A DNA stretch of 64,000 nucleotides from a bacterium (GTDB taxonomy: Bacteria; Babelota; Babeliae; Babelales; RVW-14), in the NCBI GenBank assembly GCA_016699045.1, contig CP064957.1, forward strand, positions 409,784 to 473,783, read 5' to 3'. The notes beneath the pieces were generated by a model that ran no database searches, was not told the DNA's origin, and saw nothing but the letters and a program-made list of their open reading frames with translations. The translations under genes were made by a program, and so were the position numbers. Shown piece after piece: positions 4,985-57,982 of this stretch (the stretch's first letter is position 1; every line of letters starts with the position of its first letter).

Positions 4985-6064
4985 ATGAAAAGGCTTTTTT
5001 TTCTAAGTATTTTTGCTTTCGCTGCTTTTACACGCATGCTGCACGCTCAAGACGCCATCATTCTTACACATGGCGCTTTTGCTGCCTCAAACACCTGGAT
5101 GCTGCCTGGCTCAGCATTTTATAAAAACGTCGAGCTTGCAACTAAAAACACCGCCGATATTTATCCGTACTACTGGGAGCAACCATTTGGCGGCCTTTTT
5201 GATATTGAAAAAATTAACGCAGCCAAAGAACTCGCAACGTTGGTGATTATGCTCAAAGCAAGCGGTTACGATAAAATTTCTATCATTGCACATAGCTACG
5301 GCGGGCATGTAACAGCTCTTGCAAGCCAACTTTTAAATGCAAATAAGCCATCGATAGAAGTAGTCGATACCACACAACAACCAAGCGCACGCATCGCAAC
5401 AGATGCCTTGATATATTCAAACGATAACGAACAATCTTTTAATCAAAATTTTTGCAACGCACAGCAACAAATCGCTCAAACAAGTAGCTTGCTTAAAACA
5501 TTTGATGCCCTGCCAACAGCAACTCGCACCGAACAAGATGGCCAAAATTATTATATCAACATTGTTTACACGCTAGCAACCCCAACAGACCCGGTAGAAT
5601 TCCCAATCGACACGACCACCGTTCAGTATATTATTAATGGCTGGTCTGAAAACGATCTCGTACAAGAACTCGTAAGCGGCCAAAAAATAACAATCAATCC
5701 ATCGCGCGCCATTAATCTTGAATTTTTTATACCAGAAAACGAACAAGACACAGAAGGATTTTGGAACATTATGCTTGATTTTATTAACTGGCTTCTTGGT
5801 TATGAACAAGAAGCCAGCCCCGACCATATCGAAATGCGTAGCAGTATTATCGGTCGCTGGCTGCCAAAGGTACCTTTTGAATTGCAAGCACAAGGCATTA
5901 ATGGTTTTGAAAATTTTACGTTTGAAAAAGATGGGATACTAACATTTGATCAAAACCCCGAACTACCACCTTTTATAAAAGTGAATAAATTAACTGCTAT
6001 TTTTAAGTCAAAAATCAACCATTCTGGGGAAAGGCAAGCCTTTCCCCAGAATGTCACTCCATAA
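4985..6064 (+). CDS. Secreted alpha/beta-hydrolase (lipase/esterase-like)
   Basis: Signal peptide MKRLFFLSIFAFAAFTRMLHA, nucleophile-elbow motif IIAHSYGGHV (GxSxG type), and an early THGAF oxyanion-like segment. Confidence 0.6.
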   Translation: MKRLFFLSIFAFAAFTRMLHAQDAIILTHGAFAASNTWMLPGSAFYKNVELATKNTADIYPYYWEQPFGGLFDIEKINAAKELATLVIMLKASGYDKISIIAHSYGGHVTALASQLLNANKPSIEVVDTTQQPSARIATDALIYSNDNEQSFNQNFCNAQQQIAQTSSLLKTFDALPTATRTEQDGQNYYINIVYTLATPTDPVEFPIDTTTVQYIINGWSENDLVQELVSGQKITINPSRAINLEFFIPENEQDTEGFWNIMLDFINWLLGYEQEASPDHIEMRSSIIGRWLPKVPFELQAQGINGFENFTFEKDGILTFDQNPELPPFIKVNKLTAIFKSKINHSGERQAFPQNVTP

Positions 6065-19702: not shown

Positions 19703-20238
19703 ACCGTAAGATCTTGTTCAGATTTCAATTGGTACGCTTCATGCATCAATGAAGTAATCATTACCAAAAAACCAAACATAAAAATATTGAGCAGATCGTC
19801 ATGGCCAAACGTTATCGCAAGCACTCGATTACCCGACGAGTTGGTTGCGGTAGCCACCAACGTGCTCAAGGTTTTGCTGAGTGGTGAGTACACAGCCCAA
19901 CACAGCAATATTTTACTGATACGCTTAAAAAGTATGGTGGTGTGCAATGAAAAAAATTCGCCCCGCTGAAACAAACGCAAGCTTTTGGTAAACAACACAA
20001 TCCCGTAGCACAAAAGACCAAGGCCAACACCATCAATCATGATGCCAAAAAATCTAAAAATTAAAGGCAGCTCTACTGCTTCAAAATCGTATGCCAAACG
20101 AAGATAAAAATTACAAAAATTTCCGTCCATCGGAATTTTGCAAAAGAACCATTTCAATAAAAGAAAGCAGAAAGCCAGTGGCACCAAAGCCATACTTAAT
20201 AATTCGAGCCGACGAGCATAACGTTTAACGTTATTCAT
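19699..20238 (-). CDS. DUF2975-like integral membrane protein
   Basis: 179 aa, 4-5 hydrophobic helices, immediately upstream of the YozG-like HTH gene. This is the gene pairing I recall as typical for DUF2975. Confidence 0.45.
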   Translation of the reverse strand: MNNVKRYARRLELLSMALVPLAFCFLLLKWFFCKIPMDGNFCNFYLRLAYDFEAVELPLIFRFFGIMIDGVGLGLLCYGIVLFTKSLRLFQRGEFFSLHTTILFKRISKILLCWAVYSPLSKTLSTLVATATNSSGNRVLAITFGHDDLLNIFMFGFLVMITSLMHEAYQLKSEQDLTV

Positions 20239-20323
20239 AGAAAATTCCCTTCAGAAAAAGGTTGTTGATTTGTTTTACTCCGCTCAAATATTATCAGTTA
20301 AAATATCGAATATCAATAAGAAT

Positions 20324-20340
20324 TTATCGAATTTCGATAA
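20324..20340. promoter_or_regulatory. Candidate operator palindrome upstream of the DUF2975/HTH operon
   Basis: ttatcgaa-t-ttcgataa is a perfect 8+8 inverted repeat (20324..20340). A half-site-like atatcgaatat lies at 20303..20313. About 85 nt upstream of the start at 20238. Confidence 0.3.
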
Positions 20341-20516
20341 TTTTTTAATATAAAAAACAATTACAGAACATCAAACAAAAATTATTAAAAAAATTATTTT
20401 TCGACTAAATCGCAAACTATTGACTCGAATCAACAAAAAGACTAAAAATACTTGAAGCACGATCATACGATCATCTGAGGATATGCTTTATTGATTATTT
20501 AAAGAAAGGTATCCAC

Positions 20517-21464
20517 ATGCTTCTTATCGTTCCATTCTTTTTTATTGCCTTTCTCAGTATGCCACAGCTGCATTGCGCCGCCAACAAAGCAGAAAAGCCA
20601 GAAGATGGTAAAATAGCCATTCTGCACAACTTAAAAATTATTACCTATTTTTATAACCAATATGACAGACAAGAATCGCTTTTTAATGTAATTGTAACAA
20701 TCAAACAATTTATGACAGACGAAGAAATGTCGTCAGCACTATTTCCAAAACTGGGGCTGGGACCTAGCTTTCGGCAACAAGAAATTGACGAACTTGATAC
20801 ATTAGCATCCTTTCAACTGGATGGAGAAAAAAATCTTACTCCCCAAGAAACACCATCTTTTATTCAAGCTCTTACTATTCTCAAAGGAAGATTTTATTGC
20901 ATAAACAGTGATCTTTCAGAATTAGGAACAATGAACCGTGGCGATCGAGCATGGACGCAAAGCGTAATCAACCAAATTATAGAGAACATTAATAATGTTC
21001 TTCAGAGTTACCAGTACACCAGCAAATATAAAAATGCTATCATTGAAAGCATAAAAACTTTGTGGAGATTTCATACATACGCTCAGTCACATCCAACATT
21101 GCTTAAGTTGTTTCAGCAAATCAATTATTTCATTCGTTGCATAGCAACACCTTTAGAGCTCCTGCCACGGTTAGGCTTAGGACCAAATTTTACCAGTCAA
21201 GAAATAGACCTGCCGATCACTACGCCATTTGAAACTGATAATCAGGCATATACCAGCTTGATCAAGCAACTTAGAATCATCAAAAGAAATTTCTTACTCC
21301 TACAAAAAAAAGTCCGTTCATCAAAACATTATCTTTTGGCAGAGCAACAAAAAGATATCGAAAACCATATCGAAAATATACTAACATCAGTGAGCGAGAT
21401 TCTTACTCAAAATGACCTAGCAATACTGAATGTACAATTGAGCAGCATGAACTTTAATTATTAG
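20517..21464 (+). CDS. Hypothetical secreted protein, two-module member of a local paralog family
   Basis: Signal peptide MLLIVPFFFIAFLSMPQLHCAA. Two internal modules each contain LFPKLGLGPSFRQQEIDELD / LLPRLGLGPNFTSQEIDLP and ALTILKGRFYCI / LRIIKRNFLLLQKKV. Confidence 0.55.
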   Translation: MLLIVPFFFIAFLSMPQLHCAANKAEKPEDGKIAILHNLKIITYFYNQYDRQESLFNVIVTIKQFMTDEEMSSALFPKLGLGPSFRQQEIDELDTLASFQLDGEKNLTPQETPSFIQALTILKGRFYCINSDLSELGTMNRGDRAWTQSVINQIIENINNVLQSYQYTSKYKNAIIESIKTLWRFHTYAQSHPTLLKLFQQINYFIRCIATPLELLPRLGLGPNFTSQEIDLPITTPFETDNQAYTSLIKQLRIIKRNFLLLQKKVRSSKHYLLAEQQKDIENHIENILTSVSEILTQNDLAILNVQLSSMNFNY

Positions 21465-21550
21465 CAAGAACGCCACTCGAATTGAATAAATATTTTCAAA
21501 GTTTATAATCATAATCTGAAATCCTAACAATACCAACCCTCACCAAACTA

Positions 21551-22141
21551 TTGATAGAAAGACAACAGATGAATCGCATGATTTATATTTTATTGATCGC
21601 ATTTTTCAGCATAAAAACTCTTGTTGGAGCGGCAACAGAAACACATCAAAAAAAAGATTTTAAGACTACCATCTCGCTCAGCATGAAAACTATTCGCGAT
21701 TTTGATTTAAATTGCCTTCCTAAGACCACAAATAAAATAATGGACTTATTTGTCAAAATTCAACTGTTTATTGAAGAAGCAGATATTCACGGAAACAAAA
21801 AGTTATTTAAAAAGCTCAACATGGGGACAAGTTTTTCCCAAGAAGATTTGGACGATATAGATCTCCTCCCTCAACAATTTGAAAAGGACGTTACTCCAAA
21901 AAACAAAGAAAGTTTTTTGTATTTCATTAAAGCAATAAAAATTATCAAAAATAATTTCCATCTTTTACAAAAAAATATATCTCTAGCAGATTTTTTATCC
22001 TCTACAGAAAAAGAATGGCTCAACGATCAGATTGCAGAAATTATAGGTTTAGCAGGCACCATCCTCTACGGGGCTGAATTAGGGCGGAGAGTAGCAATAA
22101 TAAAGCTCAGATCCCAACAACAAAGTTTCCCTGCATCATGA
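21551..22141 (+). CDS. Hypothetical secreted protein, single-module paralog of 20517..21464
   Basis: Contains LFKKLNMGTSFSQEDLDDIDLLP and AIKIIKNNFHLLQKNI. Signal peptide at the internal start MNRMIYILLIAFFSIKTLVGAA (21569). The stop overlaps the mvaD start (ATGA). Confidence 0.55.
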   Translation: MIERQQMNRMIYILLIAFFSIKTLVGAATETHQKKDFKTTISLSMKTIRDFDLNCLPKTTNKIMDLFVKIQLFIEEADIHGNKKLFKKLNMGTSFSQEDLDDIDLLPQQFEKDVTPKNKESFLYFIKAIKIIKNNFHLLQKNISLADFLSSTEKEWLNDQIAEIIGLAGTILYGAELGRRVAIIKLRSQQQSFPAS

Positions 22142-23112
22142 AAAAGAACACCGTGTCTGTAACGACCACCGCCAACATCGCTCTCATAAAATATTGGGGC
22201 AAGCGCGACGAACGGCTCATGCTGCCAGCCAAAAGTAGTCTTTCTGTGGGACTTTCAGCACTCACAACGACAACAGAATTTGAAACAGCAGAGCACGACA
22301 AGATCGTAACAACAGAGCACCACCAATCAAATTTTGAAAAAAAAATTATGAACTTTGTCAACGAGTTACGCCGTGATTACGGTATTACCCAACCAATCAA
22401 AATCACCACACACAATCACTTTCCAACGGCAGCCGGCCTTGCTAGCAGCGCGAGTGGCTTTGCAGCTCTTACACTCGGTTTGAATAAATTATTTGATCTC
22501 AAACTCGGCAAGCAAGAACTTTCTCAACGCGCACGCTTGGGCTCAGGCTCTGCCGCTCGCTCAGTCCTTGGTGGCTTTGTTGTGTGGCATAAAGGCACTC
22601 TTGCAAACGGAAACAATTGCTTTGCCGAACAATTGTACGATGCCAACCATTGGCCAACATTACGCATTTTGGTGGTAGTCGTTGATGCATCAATAAAAAA
22701 AATGAGTTCACGAGACGGCATGCGCTTAACCGTTACCACCAGCCCATCATTTAACACCTGGTGCACAGAATCTGAAAAACGCATCAGTGCCATGCACCAA
22801 GCGATTGCAAAACGCGATTTAGAACAGGTCGGGATGTTAGCAGAAGCTGACTGGCACGGAATGTATAAGTCCATGCGCGATACACAACCACCACTCGAGT
22901 ATCTTTCAGGCGCATCGTGGGTAGTTATTAAAACGGTCCAGCGGCTGCGCGCTGCCGGCATACTCTGCTACTTTACCACCGACGCCGGCCCCAATGTTAA
23001 AATTTTGTGTGAAGAACGCGATGCGGCAATTATCGAACAAACACTCATGGCATTAAACGAAGTAAACAACATTATCCGTAATCGCATTGCATGTGAGCCA
23101 ATAATCACATGA
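22138..23112 (+). CDS. mvaD: Diphosphomevalonate decarboxylase
   Basis: TTTANIALIKYWGKRDERLMLPAKSSLSV and the GHMP motif PTAAGLASSASGFAAL, about 324 aa. Confidence 0.9.
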   Translation: MKKNTVSVTTTANIALIKYWGKRDERLMLPAKSSLSVGLSALTTTTEFETAEHDKIVTTEHHQSNFEKKIMNFVNELRRDYGITQPIKITTHNHFPTAAGLASSASGFAALTLGLNKLFDLKLGKQELSQRARLGSGSAARSVLGGFVVWHKGTLANGNNCFAEQLYDANHWPTLRILVVVVDASIKKMSSRDGMRLTVTTSPSFNTWCTESEKRISAMHQAIAKRDLEQVGMLAEADWHGMYKSMRDTQPPLEYLSGASWVVIKTVQRLRAAGILCYFTTDAGPNVKILCEERDAAIIEQTLMALNEVNNIIRNRIACEPIIT

Positions 23113-24185
23113 TTACCATTCACACGCCCGGCAAACTGATGCTCGCGGGCGAATGGAGCGTTCTTGAACCAGATAATCGCTGCATCGTTCTTCCTATCAA
23201 TCGTTTTGCAATCTGTCAGATTCAAGAAGCAACAGAATCAACACTATCAGCACCAACGCTGGGCATTGCCAATGCAATAATTACGTACGAAAATTATGCA
23301 TACAAAATTGCATCGAACGACTCACAACTTTTTATGGCACAAGCGGTACTCAACACCACATTGCGTTTTTTAAACGAACACAAGGTCACACTCAAAAAAT
23401 TTAATCTCACCATCAATACCGACCAATTTTTTTATCATCAACAAAAACTCGGCTTTGGCAGCAGTGCTGCCGTGTGCGTTGGCATAACACGCGCGTTACT
23501 TACGTTGCATCAATTTATTGCAGACGATCTTACTATTTTCAAACTAGCAACGCTGGCACATTATCACGCACAAAAAAAAATCGGCAGCGGGTTTGATATC
23601 GCTGCGTCAACGTACGCCCAGCCACTCAGCTACCAGCGCTTTGATGCCGCATGGCTTGCCACACAAAGAACCGATTCGATTAAAAAAATTATAGAACAAC
23701 CATGGCCAGGGCTGATCATCAAGCCAATCACACTGCCGCAAAAGTTTCATATGTGCGTCGGCTTCACCGGCGTAAGCGCTTCAACAACCACCCTTGCGCA
23801 GCGCATTTTACATTTTAAAAATGAGCATACCGAACAATACCAAAACTGGTGCACGACAACCAACAAAATTATTCTTGAACTAGAAACAGCTCTTGAAAAT
23901 AATAAACAACAAACAATTATTGATTTAATTAATCAACAACAAAAATCACTGCGAAATTTGTCAGATTTGTCTGACGCACAAATTGACATTCCCGTCATGA
24001 GTTCGCTTATTGCCGCGGCGCAAAAGCACGGCACTGGTGCCAAATTTTCTGGCGCTGGTGGAGGCGACTGCGTGATTGCAATCTGCTTTGAAAATAACCG
24101 CGAAAAAAACATCAATCACGAGTGGGCGGCAATGGGTATTAAAATTATCAACACGGTAATTTTGAACCCTATGAAAAAAAATTAA
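23109..24185 (+). CDS. mvaK2: Phosphomevalonate kinase (ERG8/MvaK2 type)
   Basis: HTPGKLMLAGEWSVLEP, GHMP motif KLGFGSSAAVCVG, C-terminal KFSGAGGGDCVIA. ATGA overlap with mvaD. Confidence 0.85.
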   Translation: MITIHTPGKLMLAGEWSVLEPDNRCIVLPINRFAICQIQEATESTLSAPTLGIANAIITYENYAYKIASNDSQLFMAQAVLNTTLRFLNEHKVTLKKFNLTINTDQFFYHQQKLGFGSSAAVCVGITRALLTLHQFIADDLTIFKLATLAHYHAQKKIGSGFDIAASTYAQPLSYQRFDAAWLATQRTDSIKKIIEQPWPGLIIKPITLPQKFHMCVGFTGVSASTTTLAQRILHFKNEHTEQYQNWCTTTNKIILELETALENNKQQTIIDLINQQQKSLRNLSDLSDAQIDIPVMSSLIAAAQKHGTGAKFSGAGGGDCVIAICFENNREKNINHEWAAMGIKIINTVILNPMKKN

Positions 24186-24240
24186 ATCTCTCTTAAAAAG
24201 TATCTACATTTACTTGACCAGAGCAGTTTTTTGTATCTTT

Positions 24241-24360
24241 CCGTTCGTGCTGAGCCTGTCGAAGCATCTGAACGGGCTCTTTTTTGTCTGTCTGAAAAGC
24301 CGAGAAGAATCGAAGCCCACTTCTATCCCGCCATACTTCGACAAGCTCAGCACGAGCGGG
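24241..24360. repeat. Pair of inverted extragenic hairpin elements (locus 1)
   Basis: Unit A is ccgttcgtgctgagcctgtcgaagcatctgaacgg (24241..24275). Unit B, inverted, is cccgccatacttcgacaagctcagcacgagcggg (24327..24360). The cores are complementary at 22/24 positions and both differences are transitions. Confidence 0.6.
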
Positions 24361-24594
24361 ATCATGATGCAAAAACAGAAAAATGTATGCAATCTTTTGG
24401 AATATACAAGTGTGGCCATCGACGGTGAGTAAAGGGTCAATCATTTAATTTACAAAAATCATAATGATCGAAAGAGCGTTATATAAACAGAAAACGTACC
24501 CCTACTTTTCTAAATAATATTCTTGGTGTAGCATAAAGAACGCTTGCTAGCCACCTGCCCTTATTTAATGTAATAATCAAACAAGGAGTTTTTC

Positions 24595-25344
24595 ATGTCA
24601 TTATTTTTCTATTGCCTCGTTATCGTCATTTTTGGCGTGGGGGTACTTTTTTACGTTCGCAGCACACAAGAAACATCAATACAGAAAACAACCACACGCG
24701 CACTGCGCACGTTTGGCGATCTCAAATATCCGTTTTCACTGCCAGCACTGCTGTATACTTACAATGCTCTTGAGCCACACATCGACGAAGCAACCATGAA
24801 TATTCATCACACCAAACATCATCAAGCGTACATCAACAGCTTGAATGAATGCCTTGAAAAACATCCAGAATTTCAAAGCAAGTCACTCGTTGATTTAATT
24901 GCTCACACCAAAACATTACCAGAAAGTTTACTCAAGGTCGTTGAAAATCATGGTGGTGGACATGCCAATCATTCAATGTTTTGGCTGATTATGTCACCAC
25001 AAGGCGGCGGACAACCTGAAGGCAAATTAGCACAAGCAATTGATAAGACATTTGGTTCTTTTGAAAATTTTAAGAAATTGTTTATTGAAGCAGCAAAAAC
25101 ACGTTTTGGCAGCGGTTGGGCATGGTTATGTGTTGATAGCGATAATAATTTGGTGATCACATCAACCGCCAATCAAGACAATCCCATGATGGATGGATTA
25201 ATCCCTGTTCTTGGCTTGGACATATGGGAACATGCGTATTATTTAAAATACCAAAACAAACGCATTGATTATGTTAACACGTGGTGGAATGTAATCAACT
25301 GGCCTGTGGTTGCTGAGTATTTTGCAAAGGCATGCTCAAAGTAA
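24595..25344 (+). CDS. Fe/Mn superoxide dismutase with N-terminal membrane anchor/signal extension
   Basis: FSLPALLYTYNALEPHIDEATMNIHHTKHHQAYINSLN and DIWEHAYYLKYQNKR are SOD core motifs. A ~45-aa extension contains the hydrophobic helix FFYCLVIVIFGVGVLFYV. Confidence 0.9.
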   Translation: MSLFFYCLVIVIFGVGVLFYVRSTQETSIQKTTTRALRTFGDLKYPFSLPALLYTYNALEPHIDEATMNIHHTKHHQAYINSLNECLEKHPEFQSKSLVDLIAHTKTLPESLLKVVENHGGGHANHSMFWLIMSPQGGGQPEGKLAQAIDKTFGSFENFKKLFIEAAKTRFGSGWAWLCVDSDNNLVITSTANQDNPMMDGLIPVLGLDIWEHAYYLKYQNKRIDYVNTWWNVINWPVVAEYFAKACSK

Positions 25345-36705: not shown

Positions 36706-37089
36706 ATGAAAAACGATACCAACACAACACTCCGAGAACTCAGCGAACTTACACAAAAATTCATCAACGAACGCGACTGGGCAAAGTACCACAGCCCAAA
36801 AGATATATCTGCCAGTTTAAGCGTTGAGGCTGGCGAACTTTTGGAATTATTTTTGTGGCGCTCAACCGAAAAAATTTATACAGAGCTTGAACAAAATGAA
36901 AAATTCAAAACTCAAGTTAAAGAAGAACTAGCCGATATTTTATTTTGCTGCCTAAATTTTGCGAACCTTACCAACATTGATATATCACAAGCATTTAGAG
37001 ACAAACTCGCCAAGTCGGCACTCAAATATCCGACATCGCAAGTCAACACAGTTGAAAAATATTTTGCACTCAAATACAAGGATAAATGA
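36706..37089 (+). CDS. MazG-like nucleotide pyrophosphohydrolase (dCTPase/DCTPP1-like)
   Basis: LRELSELTQKFINERDWAKYHSPKDISASLSVEAGELLELFLW and EELADILFCCLNFANLTNIDISQAFRDKLAKSALKYP are the two metal-binding helices of the all-alpha NTP-PPase fold. Confidence 0.8.
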   Translation: MKNDTNTTLRELSELTQKFINERDWAKYHSPKDISASLSVEAGELLELFLWRSTEKIYTELEQNEKFKTQVKEELADILFCCLNFANLTNIDISQAFRDKLAKSALKYPTSQVNTVEKYFALKYKDK

Positions 37090-37138
37090 GGCGAACTCGA
37101 TAATTTTAGCCTGCCTTCCCCCCAATGCACTATTTTTT

Positions 37139-37238
37139 CCGTTCACACTGAGGAGCGCCATAGGCGCATCTCGAAGTGTTGAATATACATCGACCCTTCG
37201 AGACGATCGATTACATCGATCTCCTCAGGGAGAACGGG
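37139..37238. repeat. Pair of inverted extragenic hairpin elements (locus 2, expanded-loop variant)
   Basis: Unit A is ccgttcacactgaggagcgccataggcgcatctcgaagtgttgaa (37139..37183). Unit B, inverted, is cttcgagacgatcgattacatcgatctcctcagggagaacggg (37196..37238). They share the CCGTTC...CTGAG...TCGAAG frame with locus 1. Confidence 0.55.
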
Positions 37239-37258
37239 ACTTAGAACATACCTATTTA

Positions 37259-39145
37259 TTATGTCGCTATTGTCTTGTTAATTATTGTTTGCAATTGCAA
37301 ATACGCTTGTTTCGCTTCTTCAAGCGACGCGCCATCTTCAAGCGTACTCACATCACCAACCGGCGATCCTTCAACAACCGCCTTAAGCAAGCGACGCATA
37401 ATTTTTCCTGAACGTGTTTTAGGCAATTTATCAACACAATAAATGCCACACAACATCACAAAAGCACCAATGTACTCACGCACTACCTGGGTAATCTGTT
37501 GTTTGACATGATCGTGAGATTCACTACCACTATTTTTCAAAATAACAAACAACACCACCGCCTCACCGCGCAATTCATCGTGCACGCCAATCGCTGCCGC
37601 TTCTGCAATCATCAGCAACGTTACCACAGCACTTTCTATTTCTGCCGTACCAATGCGATGCCCTGCAATGTTAACTACTTCGTCAGCTCGACCAAGTAAC
37701 CAAAAATAACCGTCTTCATCAACGCGCGCATAATCGCCGGTATAATACATGCCCTTAAAGCGACTCCAATAAACTTCTTTAAATCGCTCTGGATCATTGT
37801 ACACACCAATCGTCATACCGGGCCATGGTTTTTTGATAACTAAATATCCCTTGGTTCCTGCCGGCACTGGATTGCCATGCGTATCAACAACTTCTGCAGC
37901 TATGGTTGGCAGTGGCACGGTTGCAGAACCAGGTTTGAGCGCTACCAAATCAAGGCCCGCGGTTGGCGCAATCATAAAGCCACCAGTTTCTGTTTGCCAC
38001 CAGGTATCAATCACTGGACAACGCCCGGCACCAATGCGTTCATGATACCAGCGCCACACGTCAGGATTGATTGGCTCCCCAACGGTTCCCAATATTTTTA
38101 AACTTGAAAGATCGCACGCTGCCGGCCATTGATCACCATACTTTATGCACATGCGAATAGCAGTTGGAGACGTGTAAAAAATTGAAACACGATATTTTTC
38201 AACCAAACGCCACCATGCCGATGGATCTGGATAGTCCAACGTGCCTTCATGAATGACGGAGGTAAGTCCAAGCAATAATGGTGCATAGACAACATACGAA
38301 TGACCAGTAATCCAGCCAATGTCTGCCGTACACCAATAAACCGACGTATGATCTGGATCAAACGCCCACTCCATCGTCGTTCGTGCGTACGTCAAGTAGC
38401 CGCCAGTTGAATGCATTAAGCCTTTTGGTTTTCCCGTAGTTCCTGACGTGTACAATATAAACAACGGATGATTTGCTTCAACCGCAACCGGTTCAACAAA
38501 AACATTCTCTTCAAAAAAATCATCCGCAACAACATCACGACCTGGTTGTAAAAAAACTTCTTGTTCAAAGCGTTTTATCACCAACACTTTTTCAATTGAA
38601 GAACATTCGCTCACGGCATGATCGACAATTTTTTTAAGTTCAATTCTTTTCCCACGACGAACACCCGCATCAGCGGTGATAACAAATTTTGCTTGCGTAT
38701 CATCAATTCGATCTTTGAGCGCATGACTACTAAAACCTGAAAACACCACCGAATGCGTAGCACCAAGGCGTGCGATTGCCAAAATGGCTGCAATCGCTTG
38801 CGGAATCATTGGCAGGTAGACCATCACAATATCATTTTTGCTCACGCCAATTTTTTGCAACGCATGCGCATACTGATTAACTTGTTTATACAACTCGGCA
38901 TAGGTCCAAGTAACAGCATTTCCTTGCTCGTCTTCACAATGGTAGGCAACTTTATTACCAAGACCATTTTTGATATGCACGTCAACGCAAGCGTACGACG
39001 CGTTGAGCGTGCCGCCAGAAAACCAATGCGCGTACGGTTCTTGCCAATCAAGAACCCTCTTCCAACGCTTAAACCATGCTAACTTTTCAGCTTGTTGTTC
39101 CCAAAAATTTTCTCTATTTAATCGATCATCACGAGCGGGCATCAT
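37259..39145 (-). CDS. acs: Acetyl-CoA synthetase (acetate--CoA ligase)
   Basis: YTSGTTGKPKG AMP-binding motif, WWQTETGG, YYTGDYARVDEDGYFWLLGRADEVVNIAGHRIGTAEIE, KLPKTRSGKIMRR. The start is set at ATGATG 39145 behind the RBS aaggatga (the ORF track extends to 39244). Confidence 0.9.
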   Translation of the reverse strand: MMPARDDRLNRENFWEQQAEKLAWFKRWKRVLDWQEPYAHWFSGGTLNASYACVDVHIKNGLGNKVAYHCEDEQGNAVTWTYAELYKQVNQYAHALQKIGVSKNDIVMVYLPMIPQAIAAILAIARLGATHSVVFSGFSSHALKDRIDDTQAKFVITADAGVRRGKRIELKKIVDHAVSECSSIEKVLVIKRFEQEVFLQPGRDVVADDFFEENVFVEPVAVEANHPLFILYTSGTTGKPKGLMHSTGGYLTYARTTMEWAFDPDHTSVYWCTADIGWITGHSYVVYAPLLLGLTSVIHEGTLDYPDPSAWWRLVEKYRVSIFYTSPTAIRMCIKYGDQWPAACDLSSLKILGTVGEPINPDVWRWYHERIGAGRCPVIDTWWQTETGGFMIAPTAGLDLVALKPGSATVPLPTIAAEVVDTHGNPVPAGTKGYLVIKKPWPGMTIGVYNDPERFKEVYWSRFKGMYYTGDYARVDEDGYFWLLGRADEVVNIAGHRIGTAEIESAVVTLLMIAEAAAIGVHDELRGEAVVLFVILKNSGSESHDHVKQQITQVVREYIGAFVMLCGIYCVDKLPKTRSGKIMRRLLKAVVEGSPVGDVSTLEDGASLEEAKQAYLQLQTIINKTIAT

Positions 39146-47751: not shown

Positions 47752-48423
47752 ATGCTTAAAAAAATATTCGTAGCATTGGGAATCTTCGTAAATATTTATG
47801 CTCCTTCCAATTACGGAGCAGCACCTCTAACGGCACGTCCCAAGCCCACCCACGAAGAATTAATCAAAAAAATGGTTTTTCTTACCGCGTCAGAAATCAA
47901 AATTCCCTACCTGTTATTTCAAGAAATACACGAAAAAATAGTCTACCTTTGTGAAATGTTTTATCGGGCAAAAACATATCACAAGCAAGAAGAAGCAGCT
48001 TGTTTGTTAATGTTATTAGAAGCTTTTCATACAAACGCACCAAAGACAGCCTTTTCTGAAAATGTCATCATCGCGGCTACGCGTTATGGCCTTACCAAAT
48101 CTTGCAAGCAATCACTCTTCTTCATTGGCGATGATAATACCATGTCGGACATGATTTATCACAGCATTCAACTGATACTTTACCAACAACAATCAGGCTA
48201 TTTTTGGTATAACATGATCTCAGATCTTGAGTATTGTAAAGCTGTGCAAATCTCAGATATCGTCAATCAATACAATCAACCTAAAAAAGAATCACAAAAG
48301 AAAAAAAATATTCGAATCAAAAAAAATGCAAAAAAAAGAATTGTCCTAACTAAAAAAGCAAAAAACAAATTCTGCCACAGGTCTTCTGAAAAGCACATAA
48401 GATTATGGAAAAAAAAACAATAG
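47752..48423 (+). CDS. Hypothetical secreted protein (family B, member 1) with Lys-rich tail
   Basis: Signal peptide MLKKIFVALGIFVNIYAPSNYGAA. Core IPYLLFQEIHEKIVYLCEMF...YGLTKSCKQSLFFIGDDNTMSDMIYHSIQLILYQ...FWYNMISDLEYCK. Tail KKESQKKKNIRIKKNAKKRIVLTKKAKNK. Confidence 0.55.
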   Translation: MLKKIFVALGIFVNIYAPSNYGAAPLTARPKPTHEELIKKMVFLTASEIKIPYLLFQEIHEKIVYLCEMFYRAKTYHKQEEAACLLMLLEAFHTNAPKTAFSENVIIAATRYGLTKSCKQSLFFIGDDNTMSDMIYHSIQLILYQQQSGYFWYNMISDLEYCKAVQISDIVNQYNQPKKESQKKKNIRIKKNAKKRIVLTKKAKNKFCHRSSEKHIRLWKKKQ

Positions 48424-48962
48424 CAGCTTTAAGCCTCATAAATATTTTTTATACAATAAGCGGATACGGAACAGCACGCGAACTTTTTCTGTACAGATCT
48501 AAAAGCGAATTATCTGCCGCTCAACAAAGCGTCATTATCATTGTTGCAACAAATACTCAAATTCCTTTTTTATATTTTAAAGAAATAGAAAAAAAAATTG
48601 ATACCATATTTTCGCATCTCGCTCATATAAAAAAATTACAACCACGCGAAGAAGAACGCTTTTTTAATTTTTTCAAACACCTTCTTGCCGCTCGACCAGG
48701 CCAAGCTCTTACTCACGACATTATGGTATTTGCTCAAGAATTTGGTTTAACACAATCAATGCATAATGCTTTTTTTCTTATCAAAAATAATGGCATGATA
48801 ACCGACATGGCACATCAATGCATTCAAGTAATTATTACCGAGCTCATTGAAGATTTTTATTGTCATTTCACTATTAATGAATTAGAAAAAATGAGAAAAA
48901 TAAAAATTAAAAAAAATAAAAACCAATATGGTAAAAAAGAATCAATTTTTCAACACAATTAA
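48405..48962 (+). CDS. Hypothetical secreted protein (family B, member 2) with Lys-rich tail
   Basis: Signal peptide MEKKTIAALSLINIFYTISGYG. Core IPFLYFKEIEKKIDTIFSHL...FGLTQSMHNAFFLIKNNGMITDMAHQCIQVIITE. Tail MRKIKIKKNKNQYGKKE. 19-nt overlap with member 1. Confidence 0.55.
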   Translation: MEKKTIAALSLINIFYTISGYGTARELFLYRSKSELSAAQQSVIIIVATNTQIPFLYFKEIEKKIDTIFSHLAHIKKLQPREEERFFNFFKHLLAARPGQALTHDIMVFAQEFGLTQSMHNAFFLIKNNGMITDMAHQCIQVIITELIEDFYCHFTINELEKMRKIKIKKNKNQYGKKESIFQHN

Positions 48963-48972
48963 CAACAAGACA

Positions 48973-49926
48973 ATGCAGATCGTGAAAAAAATAATATTCA
49001 TGGGATTAATGACAACACTCTCATGCCGCATAAAAATTCATGGTGCAGCCAATTTACCATTGCAATTTATTACACTTGATACAGAAGATCCTTCGAGCAA
49101 AATAGTCAAAATCGTCTCATCAAAAACAAAAGTTCCTTACCTTTTTTTTGAAGAAATACATAAAAAAATAGTTGAGTTATGCACATTGCTCGGCGAAACA
49201 AAAAAATTAAGACTTGAAACTGAAACAACAATTTTATGTTATCTGTGCAATTTTTTACTTACTTATCCAAAAGAATATCAAAAGCAAGATACCAAGATAG
49301 GGCTCCTTCTTGACAAAATAACCAAGTTTGTAGCCGACAAACTCCCCCCATCACCAGACATACCTGATATTGAAAAAATCTTAATAGATTACACTTTATA
49401 CTTTTTTGAAGATGATGAAAACATAAGATTGGCAGAAAATGTAGCCGAATGCATACAAATAATTTTATATAACGCCGGCAATAATTTTTATTGGTATAAT
49501 CTAATTGAAACATTAGAATACAACAAAGAAATCGTTATTTATACGCCACAATCACCCTTCTCTTCGCTCAAACAAGGCAGCAGCCGTATAAGATCGACTT
49601 TTTCAAACAGCCCGGTCAGCAGCAGCGGCAATGAATCAGACGATAAAATCAAAAGGCATTCAAGTATGCCAACTACGCCAACGATAGAACATGGATTATC
49701 CCTCAAACAACACCATCTCGACAGAATAGACAGAAGCCCAGACTGCGATGGCGACTTCACGCACAACCCTCCTAAACATGGATACTCGTCGCCACTCACA
49801 CGCATAAGCCCCGTAAAAAAAGTGGCTCCTTTAGAAATTCATCAGCCAAAAAGCAGCCAAAGCAATTCAACTAAAGTTACTATCATGGAATGCTTAATGG
49901 AAAAGAAATATCCCCAAGAACTCTAG
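48973..49926 (+). CDS. Hypothetical secreted protein (family B, member 3) with Ser/Pro-rich tail
   Basis: ATG at 48973. Signal peptide MQIVKKIIFMGLMTTLSCRIKIHGAA. Core VPYLFFEEIHKKIVELCTLL...RLAENVAECIQIILYNAGNNFYWYNLIETLEYNK, followed by an S/P/T-rich region. Confidence 0.55.
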   Translation: MQIVKKIIFMGLMTTLSCRIKIHGAANLPLQFITLDTEDPSSKIVKIVSSKTKVPYLFFEEIHKKIVELCTLLGETKKLRLETETTILCYLCNFLLTYPKEYQKQDTKIGLLLDKITKFVADKLPPSPDIPDIEKILIDYTLYFFEDDENIRLAENVAECIQIILYNAGNNFYWYNLIETLEYNKEIVIYTPQSPFSSLKQGSSRIRSTFSNSPVSSSGNESDDKIKRHSSMPTTPTIEHGLSLKQHHLDRIDRSPDCDGDFTHNPPKHGYSSPLTRISPVKKVAPLEIHQPKSSQSNSTKVTIMECLMEKKYPQEL

Positions 49927-50390
49927 ACGAAGAAAAACCTAAACGTCCCTCTCCACCACTCAAAAAATCAAGCGTTATCAATCCCCGCGGCAGCCTAGAT
50001 GAAGTTGTGCACAAAAAAGACACAAGCTCGCCTCCTCAAACAAATCCTTTGATAAAACGACTCTCTCTGCGCGAAGATGGACGCCCTTCTTCAGGAAGTC
50101 CTCACCGTCCAGGCACGCCATCGCAAAAATCTAGCGAAGAATACCCACCTCATGCACCAAGAAAAATGCTGGGCAATTTACGCATCAGCAAAGCACTTCA
50201 AAGAAACAAGACCGAGCTTCCATCGCAATTCAGCAGAAGCAAAGCCTCATCGCCCGCTGCTAACTCACCACACACGCCATCGCCACACAGCCAAAGCTCA
50301 ACATCATCGCTGCTCACATCAGCATCTTACTCAAAGCCTTTTGAAAGCGACAAAGGAGAAGAGGATGAGCAAAGCCGACAATTTAGTTAA
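49890..50390 (+). CDS. Ser/Pro-rich disordered ORF, probably the frame-shifted continuation of 48973..49926
   Basis: 166 aa with no signal peptide. Its composition (SPPLKKSS, SPHRPGTPSQKSS, SPHTPSPHSQSS) continues that of the upstream tail. The two frames overlap at 49873..49926. Confidence 0.4.
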   Translation: MLNGKEISPRTLDEEKPKRPSPPLKKSSVINPRGSLDEVVHKKDTSSPPQTNPLIKRLSLREDGRPSSGSPHRPGTPSQKSSEEYPPHAPRKMLGNLRISKALQRNKTELPSQFSRSKASSPAANSPHTPSPHSQSSTSSLLTSASYSKPFESDKGEEDEQSRQFS

Positions 50391-56354: not shown

Positions 56355-56442
56355 TGGTGCCGAGGGCCGGAATCGAACCGGCACGAGTAAAAAACTCGAG
56401 GGATTTTAAGTCCCTTGCGTCTACCAGTTCCGCCACCCCGGC
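56355..56442 (-). tRNA. tRNA-Leu (anticodon UAA), CCA encoded
   Basis: Minus strand gccggggtggcggaactggtagacgcaagggaCTTAAAAtccct...gccggttcgattccggccctcggcacca. 7-bp acceptor stem (one G-U pair), anticodon loop cuUAAaa, long variable arm, TTCGATT T-loop. Confidence 0.9.
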
Positions 56443-56450
56443 ACACATAT

Positions 56451-56524
56451 TGGAGGCGGCACCCGGAATTGAACCGGGGATCGCGGTTTTGCAGACCACT
56501 GCCTTACCACTTGGCTATGCCGCC
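56451..56524 (-). tRNA. tRNA-Cys (anticodon GCA), CCA encoded
   Basis: Minus strand ggcggcatagccaagtggtaaggcagtggtCTGCAAAaccgcgatccccggttcaattccgggtgccgcctcca. Perfect acceptor stem, anticodon GCA, discriminator U. Confidence 0.9.
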
Positions 56525-56575: not shown

Positions 56576-57982
56576 TTATACAAGCGTTCCAAACATATTT
56601 GCTACACCAGCCTCATTAATCTTTACATTAACGAAGGAACTAATGAGCGCATCATCGCCATCAAACAGAACTCGAACATTTCCTTCTGTTCTTGCTAAAA
56701 GTTTACCATTTGGGAGGCGTTTTTCAACTAAAGATTTCATTATTTTGCCAATATGTGCATCATTTTTTTCTCGAGAGATAATCCGCTGCCGTTCTTGCAG
56801 AGCTTCCAAGCGCTGCGTTTTAACTTCTGCGAGCGTAGAATCAACCAATTTGGCGGCTGGCGTATAGTTGCGCGGCGAGTAAATAAATGAGTAAACCAAG
56901 TCGTAGCGCACCTTTTCAAGCAGCGCCATCGTTTGCTGATAATCTTCTTCTGTCTCGCCTGGGTACCCAACGATCAAATCGGTCGAAATCGTAGCATCTG
57001 GCAAGCGGCTACGCAGCCAATCGATCTGTTCAAGATACAACTCAATCGTATGATTGCGACCCATTTCAAACAACATGCGCGTAGAACCAGACTGAACCGG
57101 AAAATGAACATAGGGCGGAATTTTATCACGATGCTGAGCGATCACATCAAACAACTCGATGGTCATATCTTGTGGATGCGGACTAACCCAACGAATCCAA
57201 AATTCTCCATCAATTGCCGCCACACGACGTAACAGCTCAGAAAAATCAGCCCCAGTTTGCGGATCACGATAAGAATTAACATTTTGTCCAATCAGCGTTA
57301 TTTCTTTAATTTCGCAAGCAACATCGTGCTTCACACGCTCAATAATTTCAGTCATATCATAGCTCACTTCACGACCACGCGTAAACGGCACAATGCAATA
57401 TTTACAAAACTTGTTGCAGCCGGTCATGATATTGATAAACGATGCGGCCATCTCTTTTTCTGTCTTAAATGGCTTAACATCAGCAGATGGTTTTTTAAAA
57501 AATGGCATCGATTTGGCAAAAAGACCCTTGCTTTGCACATACTGCTTCACGTTGCGGTCTTGCCCTCCCGATTTAACAATGGCCGTAGGATCTTCGCGAC
57601 GCATTTGTTTCTTGGTTTCAAGCTTAACGACCATGTCAGTCAAATACGCCAGGAACGTTTTCATCTCTTCCCGCGCACCATAAACAAAGTTAACTTGATC
57701 AAACCGCTTATAAATTTCGTCTTTTTTATAACTTGCAACGCAACCAATAACGCCAATATTAACGTACGGCTTTTGTTTCTTAATTTCGCTCAAGCGACCC
57801 AAATATGAAAACAGCTTCTGCTCGGCCTTGTCCCGCACGGCGCAGGTATTTACAATCAGCAGATCAGCCTCTTCTTCGGTTGCCACGTCATCACAGCCCA
57901 ATGATTTCAAAAATTTCGCTATTTCTTCAGAATCGGCAACGTTGGCCTGACATCCGTAAGTTTTAAAAAAAAAGGTAATCAT
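56576..57982 (-). CDS. miaB: tRNA methylthiotransferase MiaB (radical SAM, TRAM domain)
   Basis: FKTYGCQANVADSE (UPF0004 N-domain), radical-SAM cluster GCNKFCKYCIVPFTRGRE, C-terminal TRAM-like segment. ATG at 57982 (the ORF track uses the GTG at 57997). Confidence 0.8.
   Translation of the reverse strand: MITFFFKTYGCQANVADSEEIAKFLKSLGCDDVATEEEADLLIVNTCAVRDKAEQKLFSYLGRLSEIKKQKPYVNIGVIGCVASYKKDEIYKRFDQVNFVYGAREEMKTFLAYLTDMVVKLETKKQMRREDPTAIVKSGGQDRNVKQYVQSKGLFAKSMPFFKKPSADVKPFKTEKEMAASFINIMTGCNKFCKYCIVPFTRGREVSYDMTEIIERVKHDVACEIKEITLIGQNVNSYRDPQTGADFSELLRRVAAIDGEFWIRWVSPHPQDMTIELFDVIAQHRDKIPPYVHFPVQSGSTRMLFEMGRNHTIELYLEQIDWLRSRLPDATISTDLIVGYPGETEEDYQQTMALLEKVRYDLVYSFIYSPRNYTPAAKLVDSTLAEVKTQRLEALQERQRIISREKNDAHIGKIMKSLVEKRLPNGKLLARTEGNVRVLFDGDDALISSFVNVKINEAGVANMFGTLV

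Follow-up and report, generated by a model that had tools for sequence, protein, structure and literature searches.

What is the short inverted repeat that follows the mevalonate-pathway genes in a genome of the Babelota, and does it belong to a wider family? The window analysed here is a 64,000-nucleotide (nt) stretch of contig CP064957.1 (GCA_016699045.1, positions 409,784 to 473,783 of the forward strand), whose nearest named relatives in homologue searches are Candidatus Babeliales. A first-pass annotation, made from the sequence alone, had described two inverted ~35-nt units at 24241-24360 (locus 1), 51 nt apart and downstream of the mevalonate-pathway genes, together with a related locus at 37139 (locus 2), and had suggested a repeat class that is widespread but functionally unexplained. 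Coordinates and gene context agree with that description of locus 1. Both loci are genuine members of a short DNA repeat family that spans many bacterial phyla, and in other genomes this repeat is strongly associated, as a flanking repeat, with a clade of ~94-amino-acid (aa) single-domain GIY-YIG nucleases. The class is thus widespread as suggested, and the nuclease link narrows what had seemed unexplained.

A short repeat unit with a covarying hairpin

The short unit reads CCGTTC-NNN-CTGAGCYTGTCGAAG-N'N'N', i.e. CCGTTC-NNN-CT-GAGCYTGTCGA-AG-N'N'N', in which NNN pairs with N'N'N' and CT with AG. At locus 1 it forms inverted arms of 27 nt each (24241-24267 and 24333-24359), 89% complementary and 65 nt apart, within an element of 119 nt (24241-24359). 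The 24-nt cores of the two units agree at 22 of 24 positions and differ by transitions at the other two, as had been noticed before. The transitions had been taken as compatible with G-U pairing in an RNA; they are real but fit single-stranded DNA as well as RNA. The units of locus 2, which has 17-nt arms likewise 65 nt apart, are a longer variant, CTGAGGAG-hairpin-RTCTCGAAG. They retain the CCGTTC tag, the free stem, CTGAG and TCGAAG, with a second hairpin in place of C-YTG-T, so that the related locus is real but does not share the sequence of the locus 1 unit.

Within the window, the 18-mer core GTGCTGAGCYTGTCGAAG is found in just two places in 64 kb, both in locus 1, where 0.12 would be expected. 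The tag-plus-core pattern CCGTTCNNNCTGAG, with at most one mismatch, occurs five times against an expectation of 0.38, and four of these occurrences are the units of the two loci. A covariance model of the short unit (R1) scored strongly on the two units of locus 1 and weakly on those of locus 2, and its scan of the window gave no further credible unit.

The distribution of the unit was assessed with a 24-nt pattern in a one-genome-per-species collection, NNN and N'N'N' being left unconstrained; the left unit of locus 1 is an exact match to the pattern used (CCGTTCNNNCTGAGCYTGTCGAAG). Among the matches listed are Alpha-, Beta-, Gamma- and Deltaproteobacteria, Chloroflexota/Dehalococcoidia and Cyanobacteria. 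The 15-nt core also occurs in viral contigs, where many of the matches listed have a CCGTTC or CCGCTC tag and a complementary triplet, and units are present on plasmid or chromid records of Sphingobium, Novosphingobium, Comamonas, Sulfuricella and Polaromonas, mostly at unannotated positions. The long variant is common too, typically as CCCTCATC-CTGAGGAG-(GC-rich hairpin)-CGTCTCGAAG-GATGAGGG, with at least 15 distinct inner-stem sequences; a plasmid search with the locus 2 sequence gave no match. Among Babeliales, genome GCA_019746485.1 carries a 42.9-bit unit at a site other than those of the window loci. A unit-like cluster lies in the same genome (L451 5040-5185), with a strong unit at 5152-5178 and degenerate ones upstream of it. 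Since this cluster directly precedes a gene start with a ribosome-binding site, units are not restricted to gene 3' ends.

The stem of the unit covaries. Its triplets are fully complementary (3 of 3 pairs) in 139 of the 166 units listed, compared to 46 in shuffles, and the compensatory stem types include GCC/GGC, GGG/CCC, GTC/GAC, GTG/CAC, GCG/CGC and GTA/TAC, among others. When distinct sequences are considered, 91.4% of cells are paired versus 73.9% in shuffles, and slid-partner controls reach at most 57%. The covariation score is 0.50 against 0.18 in shuffles, a value reached by none of 500 shuffles. Mispairs are unevenly spread, with 46 G.T/T.G pairs and 12 A.C/C.A pairs in the unit stems, which identifies the strand reading CCGTTC...CTGAGC...TCGAAG as the one that folds. 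The tag, CCGTTC or CCGCTC, is confined to the 5' side and gives the unit an orientation. Because GAACGG follows closely in only 7 of the 166 units listed, CCGTTC is usually an unpaired tag.

Units mostly occur in convergent pairs, of which there are 43, compared to 5 divergent and 13 tandem ones; convergent pairs are separated by 25-73 nt from core to core, and spacers in other genomes vary in both length and sequence. Stem triplets differ between the partners of 38 out of 40 orphan pairs, for the most part at 4-5 of 6 positions, and the conserved structure is therefore the local hairpin of each unit, not a duplex between units. The minimum-energy fold of locus 1 is nevertheless a long duplex between its two units. 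The paired-hairpin structure proposed in the first-pass annotation accordingly stands for the local hairpins, but not for the inter-unit duplex as the conserved structure.

A GIY-YIG nuclease gene between the units

The association with a nuclease is plainest in Altererythrobacter fulvus (L211), where a 94-aa GIY-YIG gene (PF01541) is bracketed by two identical 27-nt units. Longer database versions of the homologues of this nuclease continue into translated unit sequence, namely PELVEG, PSTSSGR and SFDRLRTNG. These peptides, along with LRQAQ and LSLSK, bear out the earlier statement that such strings appear in database proteins, and unit-derived peptides are present in the read-through extensions of 64 of 150 representatives of the clade's 50%-identity clusters.

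Eighty metagenome loci of relatives of the L211 nuclease were selected on protein similarity only. Of 75 loci, 51 have a sense unit at most 150 nt upstream of the nuclease gene, its commonest distance to the start codon being ~27 nt, and 59 of 77 have an antisense unit downstream, 2-38 nt past the stop; 45 of 72 have units on both sides. The background, measured more than 400 nt away from the nuclease gene, is 0.08 units per kb. The two units that flank a gene share their stem triplets exactly in 19 of 49 loci and differ at no more than one position in 25 of 49, so that these units, in contrast to orphan pairs, resemble terminal inverted repeats. The units of locus 1 differ at only one of six stem positions, and in this respect the pair resembles the gene-bearing type. 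The hallmark positions Y6, Y16, R26, H30 and E63 are invariant in the unit-associated clade.

The form of the unit varies among members of the clade. Those of Sphingomonas parapaucimobilis have the form CTGAGC-GAAG-TCGAAG, and in Methylobacterium bullatum and M. aquaticum clade members are flanked by long-type units, CTGAGGTG-hairpin-CCTCGAAG, with differing inner stems. At two further loci (L267 and L275) the units read CCGTTC-GTC-CTGAGGAG-(AGG CTGAGCTTGTCGAAG CCT)-CGTCTCGAAG-GAC, a long unit with a short unit as its inner hairpin. As such nested units flank genes of the clade, the locus 2 type is tied to the same nucleases. Sphingomonadales-type loci (L244-L323) often have an extra [-] unit ~105 nt upstream and an extra [+] unit ~100 nt downstream. 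One clade member, in Sphingomonas paeninsulae (L461, between rnc and era), has an in-frame stop codon and no flanking units and looks decayed.

Pairwise scores split single-domain GIY-YIG proteins into three groups: Ssn, UPF0213/YhbQ-like and the unit-associated clade. Members of the Ssn group (Neisseria gonorrhoeae, Azospirillum, S. meliloti) score 100-110 bits among themselves, and the unit-associated clade 100-106 bits internally. This clade reaches 55 bits (38% identity) with N. gonorrhoeae SsnA and 70 bits with PDB 1zg2 (BH0048), and by such scores is nearer to UPF0213 (PDB 1zg2, 1ywl) than to the Ssn group. None of five UPF0213-type GIY-YIG genes (Legionella lytica, Vibrio, Xanthomonas, Variovorax, Cupriavidus) is flanked by units. 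Starting from the repeat, the neighbour genes of 240 unit-bearing loci (3411 open reading frames (ORFs) within 1.5 kb) included no enriched transposase or Y1 cluster; the recurrent neighbours are phage structural genes alone, reflecting the composition of the viral set. A search of viral contigs for the nuclease gave one locus.

The closest described parallel is the Ssn system. SsnA of Neisseria is a 94-aa single-domain GIY-YIG protein flanked by NTS hairpin repeats, and its cleavage beside the NTS repeat is limited to single-stranded DNA and to one of the two strands, double-stranded DNA and RNA being left uncut (Chenal et al. 2025, PMC11893778). Its clade corresponds to CDD cd10448, and related 'SRM' repeats surround the genes of homologues in many phyla (PMC11893778); an association of 81% is reported for Ssn and SRM. 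Both systems have a ~94-aa single-domain GIY-YIG gene between inverted hairpin repeats of 20-50 nt (here in the 45 of 72 loci mentioned above), a non-palindromic 5' tag that orients the repeat (here CCGTTC/CCGCTC, with the covarying stem and the wobble strand bias), and hundreds of orphan intergenic copies, often paired, in several phyla. They differ in the sequence of the repeat and in the nuclease, which by pairwise scores belongs to a clade separate from Ssn and closer to UPF0213; moreover, the tags point away from the gene in Sphingomonadales but towards it in Neisseria and Azospirillum. The SRM consensus HGTCWYN(0-2)YYVSBRHN(0-5)WNVSBRGN(0-2)RNCYNB has no match in the window or on the units, whereas as a positive control it picks up the regions that flank N. 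gonorrhoeae ssnA and an Azospirillum homologue. It gave six matches in the 331 kb of unit-flanked GIY loci, all canonical NTS-like and far from the gene. On these sequence comparisons, the present system is best filed with Ssn/SRM as to kind, while its repeat and its nuclease clade are different ones. Metagenome contigs L274, L280 and L292, with loci of the unit-associated clade, carry NTS/SRM-type repeats (CGTCAYYCC...) beside CTGAGC..TCGAAG units, so that two nuclease-repeat systems can share one genome.

The two loci in the window and their turnover

The features of the window are collected in the table below. All units of loci 1 and 2 form their own local fold, and both units of locus 1 close their tag (CCGTTC/GAACGG and CCCGC/GCGGG), in accordance with the folds drawn earlier for them. 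The right unit of locus 1, read as its reverse complement, is CCCGCTCGTGCTGAGCTTGTCGAAGTATGGCGGG, with the tag variant CCGCTC closed by GGCGGG, and its local fold has -19.3 kcal/mol (z = -3.25). The entire element of locus 1 folds with -64.6 kcal/mol (z = -7.05 against shuffled sequence). At locus 2 the values are -21.1 kcal/mol (z = -4.54) for the left unit, in which the weak R1 match covers the tag and the CTGAG motif, -21.5 kcal/mol (z = -2.74) for the right unit and -55.5 kcal/mol (z = -8.03 against shuffled sequence) for the whole. The inner hairpins of the two locus 2 units are unlike in sequence and both are paired.

Table. Coordinates of repeat units and other features in the 64,000-nt window
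Feature	Position	Strand	Remarks
Left unit of locus 1, short variant	24241..24275	+	R1 47 bits, E = 2.6e-8 on 24241-24267; local fold; order: 5' tag CCGTTC, stem GTGCT/AGCAT, 11-nt loop GAGCCTGTCGA, CT bulge, GAACGG closing the tag
Spacer between locus 1 units, 51 nt	24276..24326	.	begins GCTCTTTTTTG
Right unit of locus 1, short variant, inverted	24327..24360	-	R1 40.5 bits, E = 5.9e-7 on 24333-24359
Outer extension of inverted repeat, TTTTTGTATC	24228..24237	.	pairs with 24366-24375; in minimum-free-energy stem
Outer extension of inverted repeat, GATGCAAAAA	24366..24375	.	partner of 24228-24237; in minimum-free-energy stem
Left unit of locus 2, long variant	37139..37183	+	CCGTTC-ACACT-GAG-(GAGCGCC ATA GGCGCATC)-TCGA-AGTGT-TGAA
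Spacer of locus 2, 10 nt	37184..37193	.	
Right unit of locus 2, long variant, inverted	37194..37237	-	reverse complement CCGTTC-TCCCT-GAG-(GAGATCGAT GTA ATCGATCGTC)-TCGA-AGGG
Adjacent tRNA gene	56358-56442	-	Rfam at gathering thresholds
Adjacent tRNA gene	56454-56524	-	Rfam at gathering thresholds

Locus 1 follows a GHMP-kinase gene (phosphomevalonate kinase, 23109-24185), itself preceded by diphosphomevalonate decarboxylase, and comes before a gene for Fe/Mn superoxide dismutase (24595-25344). Four spurious ORFs overlap it, 24193-24444(-), 24210-24440(-), 24214-24432(+) and 24231-24428(+), and contain the peptides FVLSLSKH, FDKLSTSG and LRQAQHER, just as the first-pass annotation had reported. 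Locus 2 has a convergent gene on either side, one encoding a MazG-like pyrophosphohydrolase and the other an acetyl-CoA-synthetase-like enzyme.

In this lineage the copies turn over between relatives. Two relatives, whose kinase is 86% identical and whose gene order is the same, lack locus 1, and their intergenic region at the site is 102-106 nt long versus 409 nt in the window. A 10-nt direct repeat, AAACAGAAAA, at 24373-24382 and 24485-24494 encloses ~102 nt just to the right of the hairpin element. As this bracketed stretch is also missing from the two relatives, the lineage-specific segment (~24186-24480) is larger than the element, and it may record more than one event. Relatives with 82% protein identity have locus 2 in the same place, where the inner hairpin of its right unit is replaced by other sequence with pairing kept. 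Locus 2 is absent from the Babeliales relative at 63% identity (GCA_019746485.1), in which the gap between these convergent genes is occupied by an inverted repeat of unrelated sequence, CCCTCGATAC...GTATCGAGGG (L451 2888-3005, and L453); some hairpin may be needed at this site.

Other observations were made alongside. Of two contigs of assembly GCA_020049755.1 (L241 and L446), one is identical to the window and the other comes from a relative with 86% protein identity, and two related strains or species therefore co-occur in the sample. A weak unit-like string near the two tRNA genes (CCGTTCTTGCAGAGCTT, 56789-56813; 9.4 bits, E = 2) is probably due to chance. Window G+C dips to 0.33-0.34 at 20001-22000 and 48001-50000 compared to ~0.41 elsewhere, and the ORF at 20517-21464 has no Pfam match.

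Competing explanations and implications

The account we prefer is that both loci are orphan copies of a widespread REPIN-like paired-hairpin family, cognate to the GIY-YIG nuclease clade, and with its proposed mechanism included we judge it rather probable. The unit combines the 5' tag CCGTTC with a short stem whose sequence is free and with a junction and loop that are conserved, CU-GAGCYUGUCGA-AG, and the loop can be expanded into a second hairpin to give the long variant, CTGAGGAG...RTCTCGAAG. The gene-bearing form is unit(+), nuclease gene, unit(-), and the cognate enzymes would be the ~94-aa single-domain GIY-YIG proteins related to UPF0213/YhbQ and Ssn nucleases. By analogy with SsnA and NTS, the nuclease may bind the hairpin of one strand as single-stranded DNA and cut near the tag, and this interaction may drive the spread and upkeep of the repeat. 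In the present genome the copies are intergenic, downstream of genes, and come and go over time, possibly with a secondary role as hairpins at transcript 3' ends. Family membership, the covarying hairpin of each unit with its strand bias, the nuclease-gene association and the turnover between relatives are observed, whereas single-stranded DNA cleavage, the mode of spread and any role in this genome are inferred.

A role primarily in RNA, with the hairpins terminating transcription or serving the mRNAs upstream of them as 3'-end stabilisers or processing sites and the nuclease link being incidental, appears unlikely, although several features speak for it. Both loci lie just behind genes, locus 2 between convergent ones; behind the left unit of locus 1 comes GCTCTTTTTTG. 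Where locus 2 is missing, in the Babeliales relative, another inverted repeat stands in its place, and G.T wobble prefers one strand. There is also a sub-threshold similarity to small RNAs (sRNAs) from RNA sequencing (RNA-seq). Rfam at gathering thresholds finds only the two tRNAs in the window and nothing at loci 1 or 2, and in 20 other unit-bearing loci no family covers the units. At E up to 10, the only families found are RF02901 (29.2 bits against a threshold of 97) and RF02823 (13.4 against 40). The consensus of RF02901 (AaHKsRNA41, Aggregatibacter) holds the inverted pair GCUGAgCUUGcCGAAGCAU...AUGgUUCGgCAAGcUCAgC, and that of RF02823 (LPR69, Legionella) holds GGCGC..GCGCC-UCCUCAG-NNN-GAACG. 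Since both contain the unit, these sRNA candidates overlap copies of the repeat family; both are RNA-seq-defined, model the transcript of one species and not a repeat, and have no assigned function. However, an intrinsic-terminator scan of 24100-24650 and 37000-37350 called no terminator-like site at either locus, the T-run behind the left unit of locus 1 does not adjoin the stem but begins 4 nt past it, most units elsewhere are without a T-run, and a Babeliales unit (in L451) lies directly upstream of a gene start. A terminator would also leave two things unexplained: the conservation of a 15-nt loop and junction and a 6-nt tag across phyla, and the units on both sides of one nuclease gene at 45 of 72 loci. 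The least probable of the alternatives is a stand-alone sRNA or a self-cleaving ribozyme, to which the very stable folds, the two sub-threshold sRNA families and the CUGAGGAG-hairpin-...CGAAG of the long variant might point, CUGAGGA...GAA being reminiscent of a hammerhead core. The hammerhead requires GAAA directly after stem II, whereas RUCUC intervenes here, and the hammerhead reading was rejected because of the wrong spacing and the lack of Rfam support. Rfam matches up to E = 10 include no ribozyme family, the paired element reads alike on both strands, and the promoter-like site within locus 1 is a weak consensus match (9/12).

Mobile elements of known kinds share much of the architecture. 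A classical MITE (a miniature transposable element with inverted repeats), i.e. an insertion sequence shortened by deletion that a DDE transposase or another conventional one moves in trans, would account for terminal inverted repeats, a size of 99-148 nt, intergenic copies, many sites in other genomes and presence that varies between relatives. We regard it as very improbable: no target-site duplication was found at the window loci, no transposase is enriched within 1.5 kb of the 240 loci, the stems within an orphan pair are usually unlike each other, as those of true terminal inverted repeats are not, and the covariation points to a folded single strand. QMITE2 of Coxiella burnetii, with 150-190 bp, direct repeats of 7-11 nt and a GTAG repetitive extragenic palindromic (REP) sequence targeted by IS1111 (PMC5896051), was compared by its description only. 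It is likewise small, intergenic and located at gene 3' ends, with strong hairpins, annotated sRNAs, spurious ORFs and versions shared by distant taxa, but its size, direct repeats and GTAG REP/IS1111 target are not matched by the window loci; QMITE1/2 were rejected on these described features. The chance that the loci are REP/REPIN elements served by RAYT, an IS200/IS605-like Y1 transposase, is slighter again. Both loci do have the form of the REPIN mobile unit, two inverted REP-like units with a spacer, and the likeness extends to the short imperfect palindromes in inverted doublets, the one-sided conserved tag, the covarying stems with G.T pairs, the many orphan copies in intergenic position and an associated gene flanked by repeats (PMC3116915, PMC3733652). 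Yet the gene between the units encodes a GIY-YIG nuclease, not an HUH/Y1 transposase, and no Y1 cluster is found among the neighbours. GTAG, CTAC and CGTC are absent from both loci, with a single GACG inside locus 2, and for want of such a tag the GTAG/CGTC REP classes of Di Nocera et al. (PMC3733652) were rejected. In the searchable literature the 15-mer core sequences and unit peptides gave nothing relevant, and no paper was found that joins GIY-YIG with REP, REPIN or RAYT; nor was a description of the repeat found there, in Rfam or in published REP or SRM definitions. The pattern and covariance-model, folding and Rfam checks proposed with the first-pass annotation thus yielded covariation, stable folds and no family at threshold, for units that occur well beyond the two loci and match neither REP tags nor SRM.

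Several observations weigh against the preferred account, in which the loci are orphan repeats of the nuclease clade. A GIY-YIG gene of any clade is absent from the 64-kb window, and none of 119 long-variant viral loci has one (~49 of 128 distinct matches look genuine). The link between gene and repeat is seen in Alphaproteobacteria and metagenome contigs only, while the repeat also occurs in Dependentiae, Chloroflexota and Beta/Gammaproteobacteria. Unit order differs, being [+] gene [-] in Sphingomonadales versus [-] gene [+] in Methylobacterium. No clean empty site was found at locus 1, where the missing segment of ~300 nt exceeds the 119-nt element, and no target-site duplication was found. 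Strand bias and G.T pairs fit RNA equally well, and the action of the clade's enzymes on the repeat is predicted by analogy with SsnA.

A broader proposition is that the proteins form a third single-domain GIY-YIG clade, apart from Ssn and nearer to UPF0213, with its own near-invariant hairpin module (CCGTTC tag, CU/GA-AG junction, loop GAGCYUGUC) that is shared from Alphaproteobacteria to Chloroflexota, Cyanobacteria and Dependentiae and can be nested or expanded to the long variant. The junk peptides 'PFDKLRANG / LSLSKHE' would then mark a pan-bacterial system of single-stranded-DNA nucleases and repeats. We see the arguments for and against this proposition as evenly balanced.

The repeat is common in bacterial genomes and seeds spurious 'hypothetical proteins', and with its tie to one GIY-YIG clade, what was a nuisance in annotation becomes a system open to testing. 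The prediction is a new specificity class of single-stranded-DNA-hairpin nucleases, with the probable recognition site given to the base, which would extend the 2025 Ssn finding past the cd10448-type clade and the SRM motif. The unit can be used as a marker, both to mask false ORFs and to follow the spread of such systems into lineages that are reduced and intracellular, Babeliales among them. If the pan-bacterial system is real, it would provide a second natural source of programmable, sequence-specific single-strand DNA nucleases.

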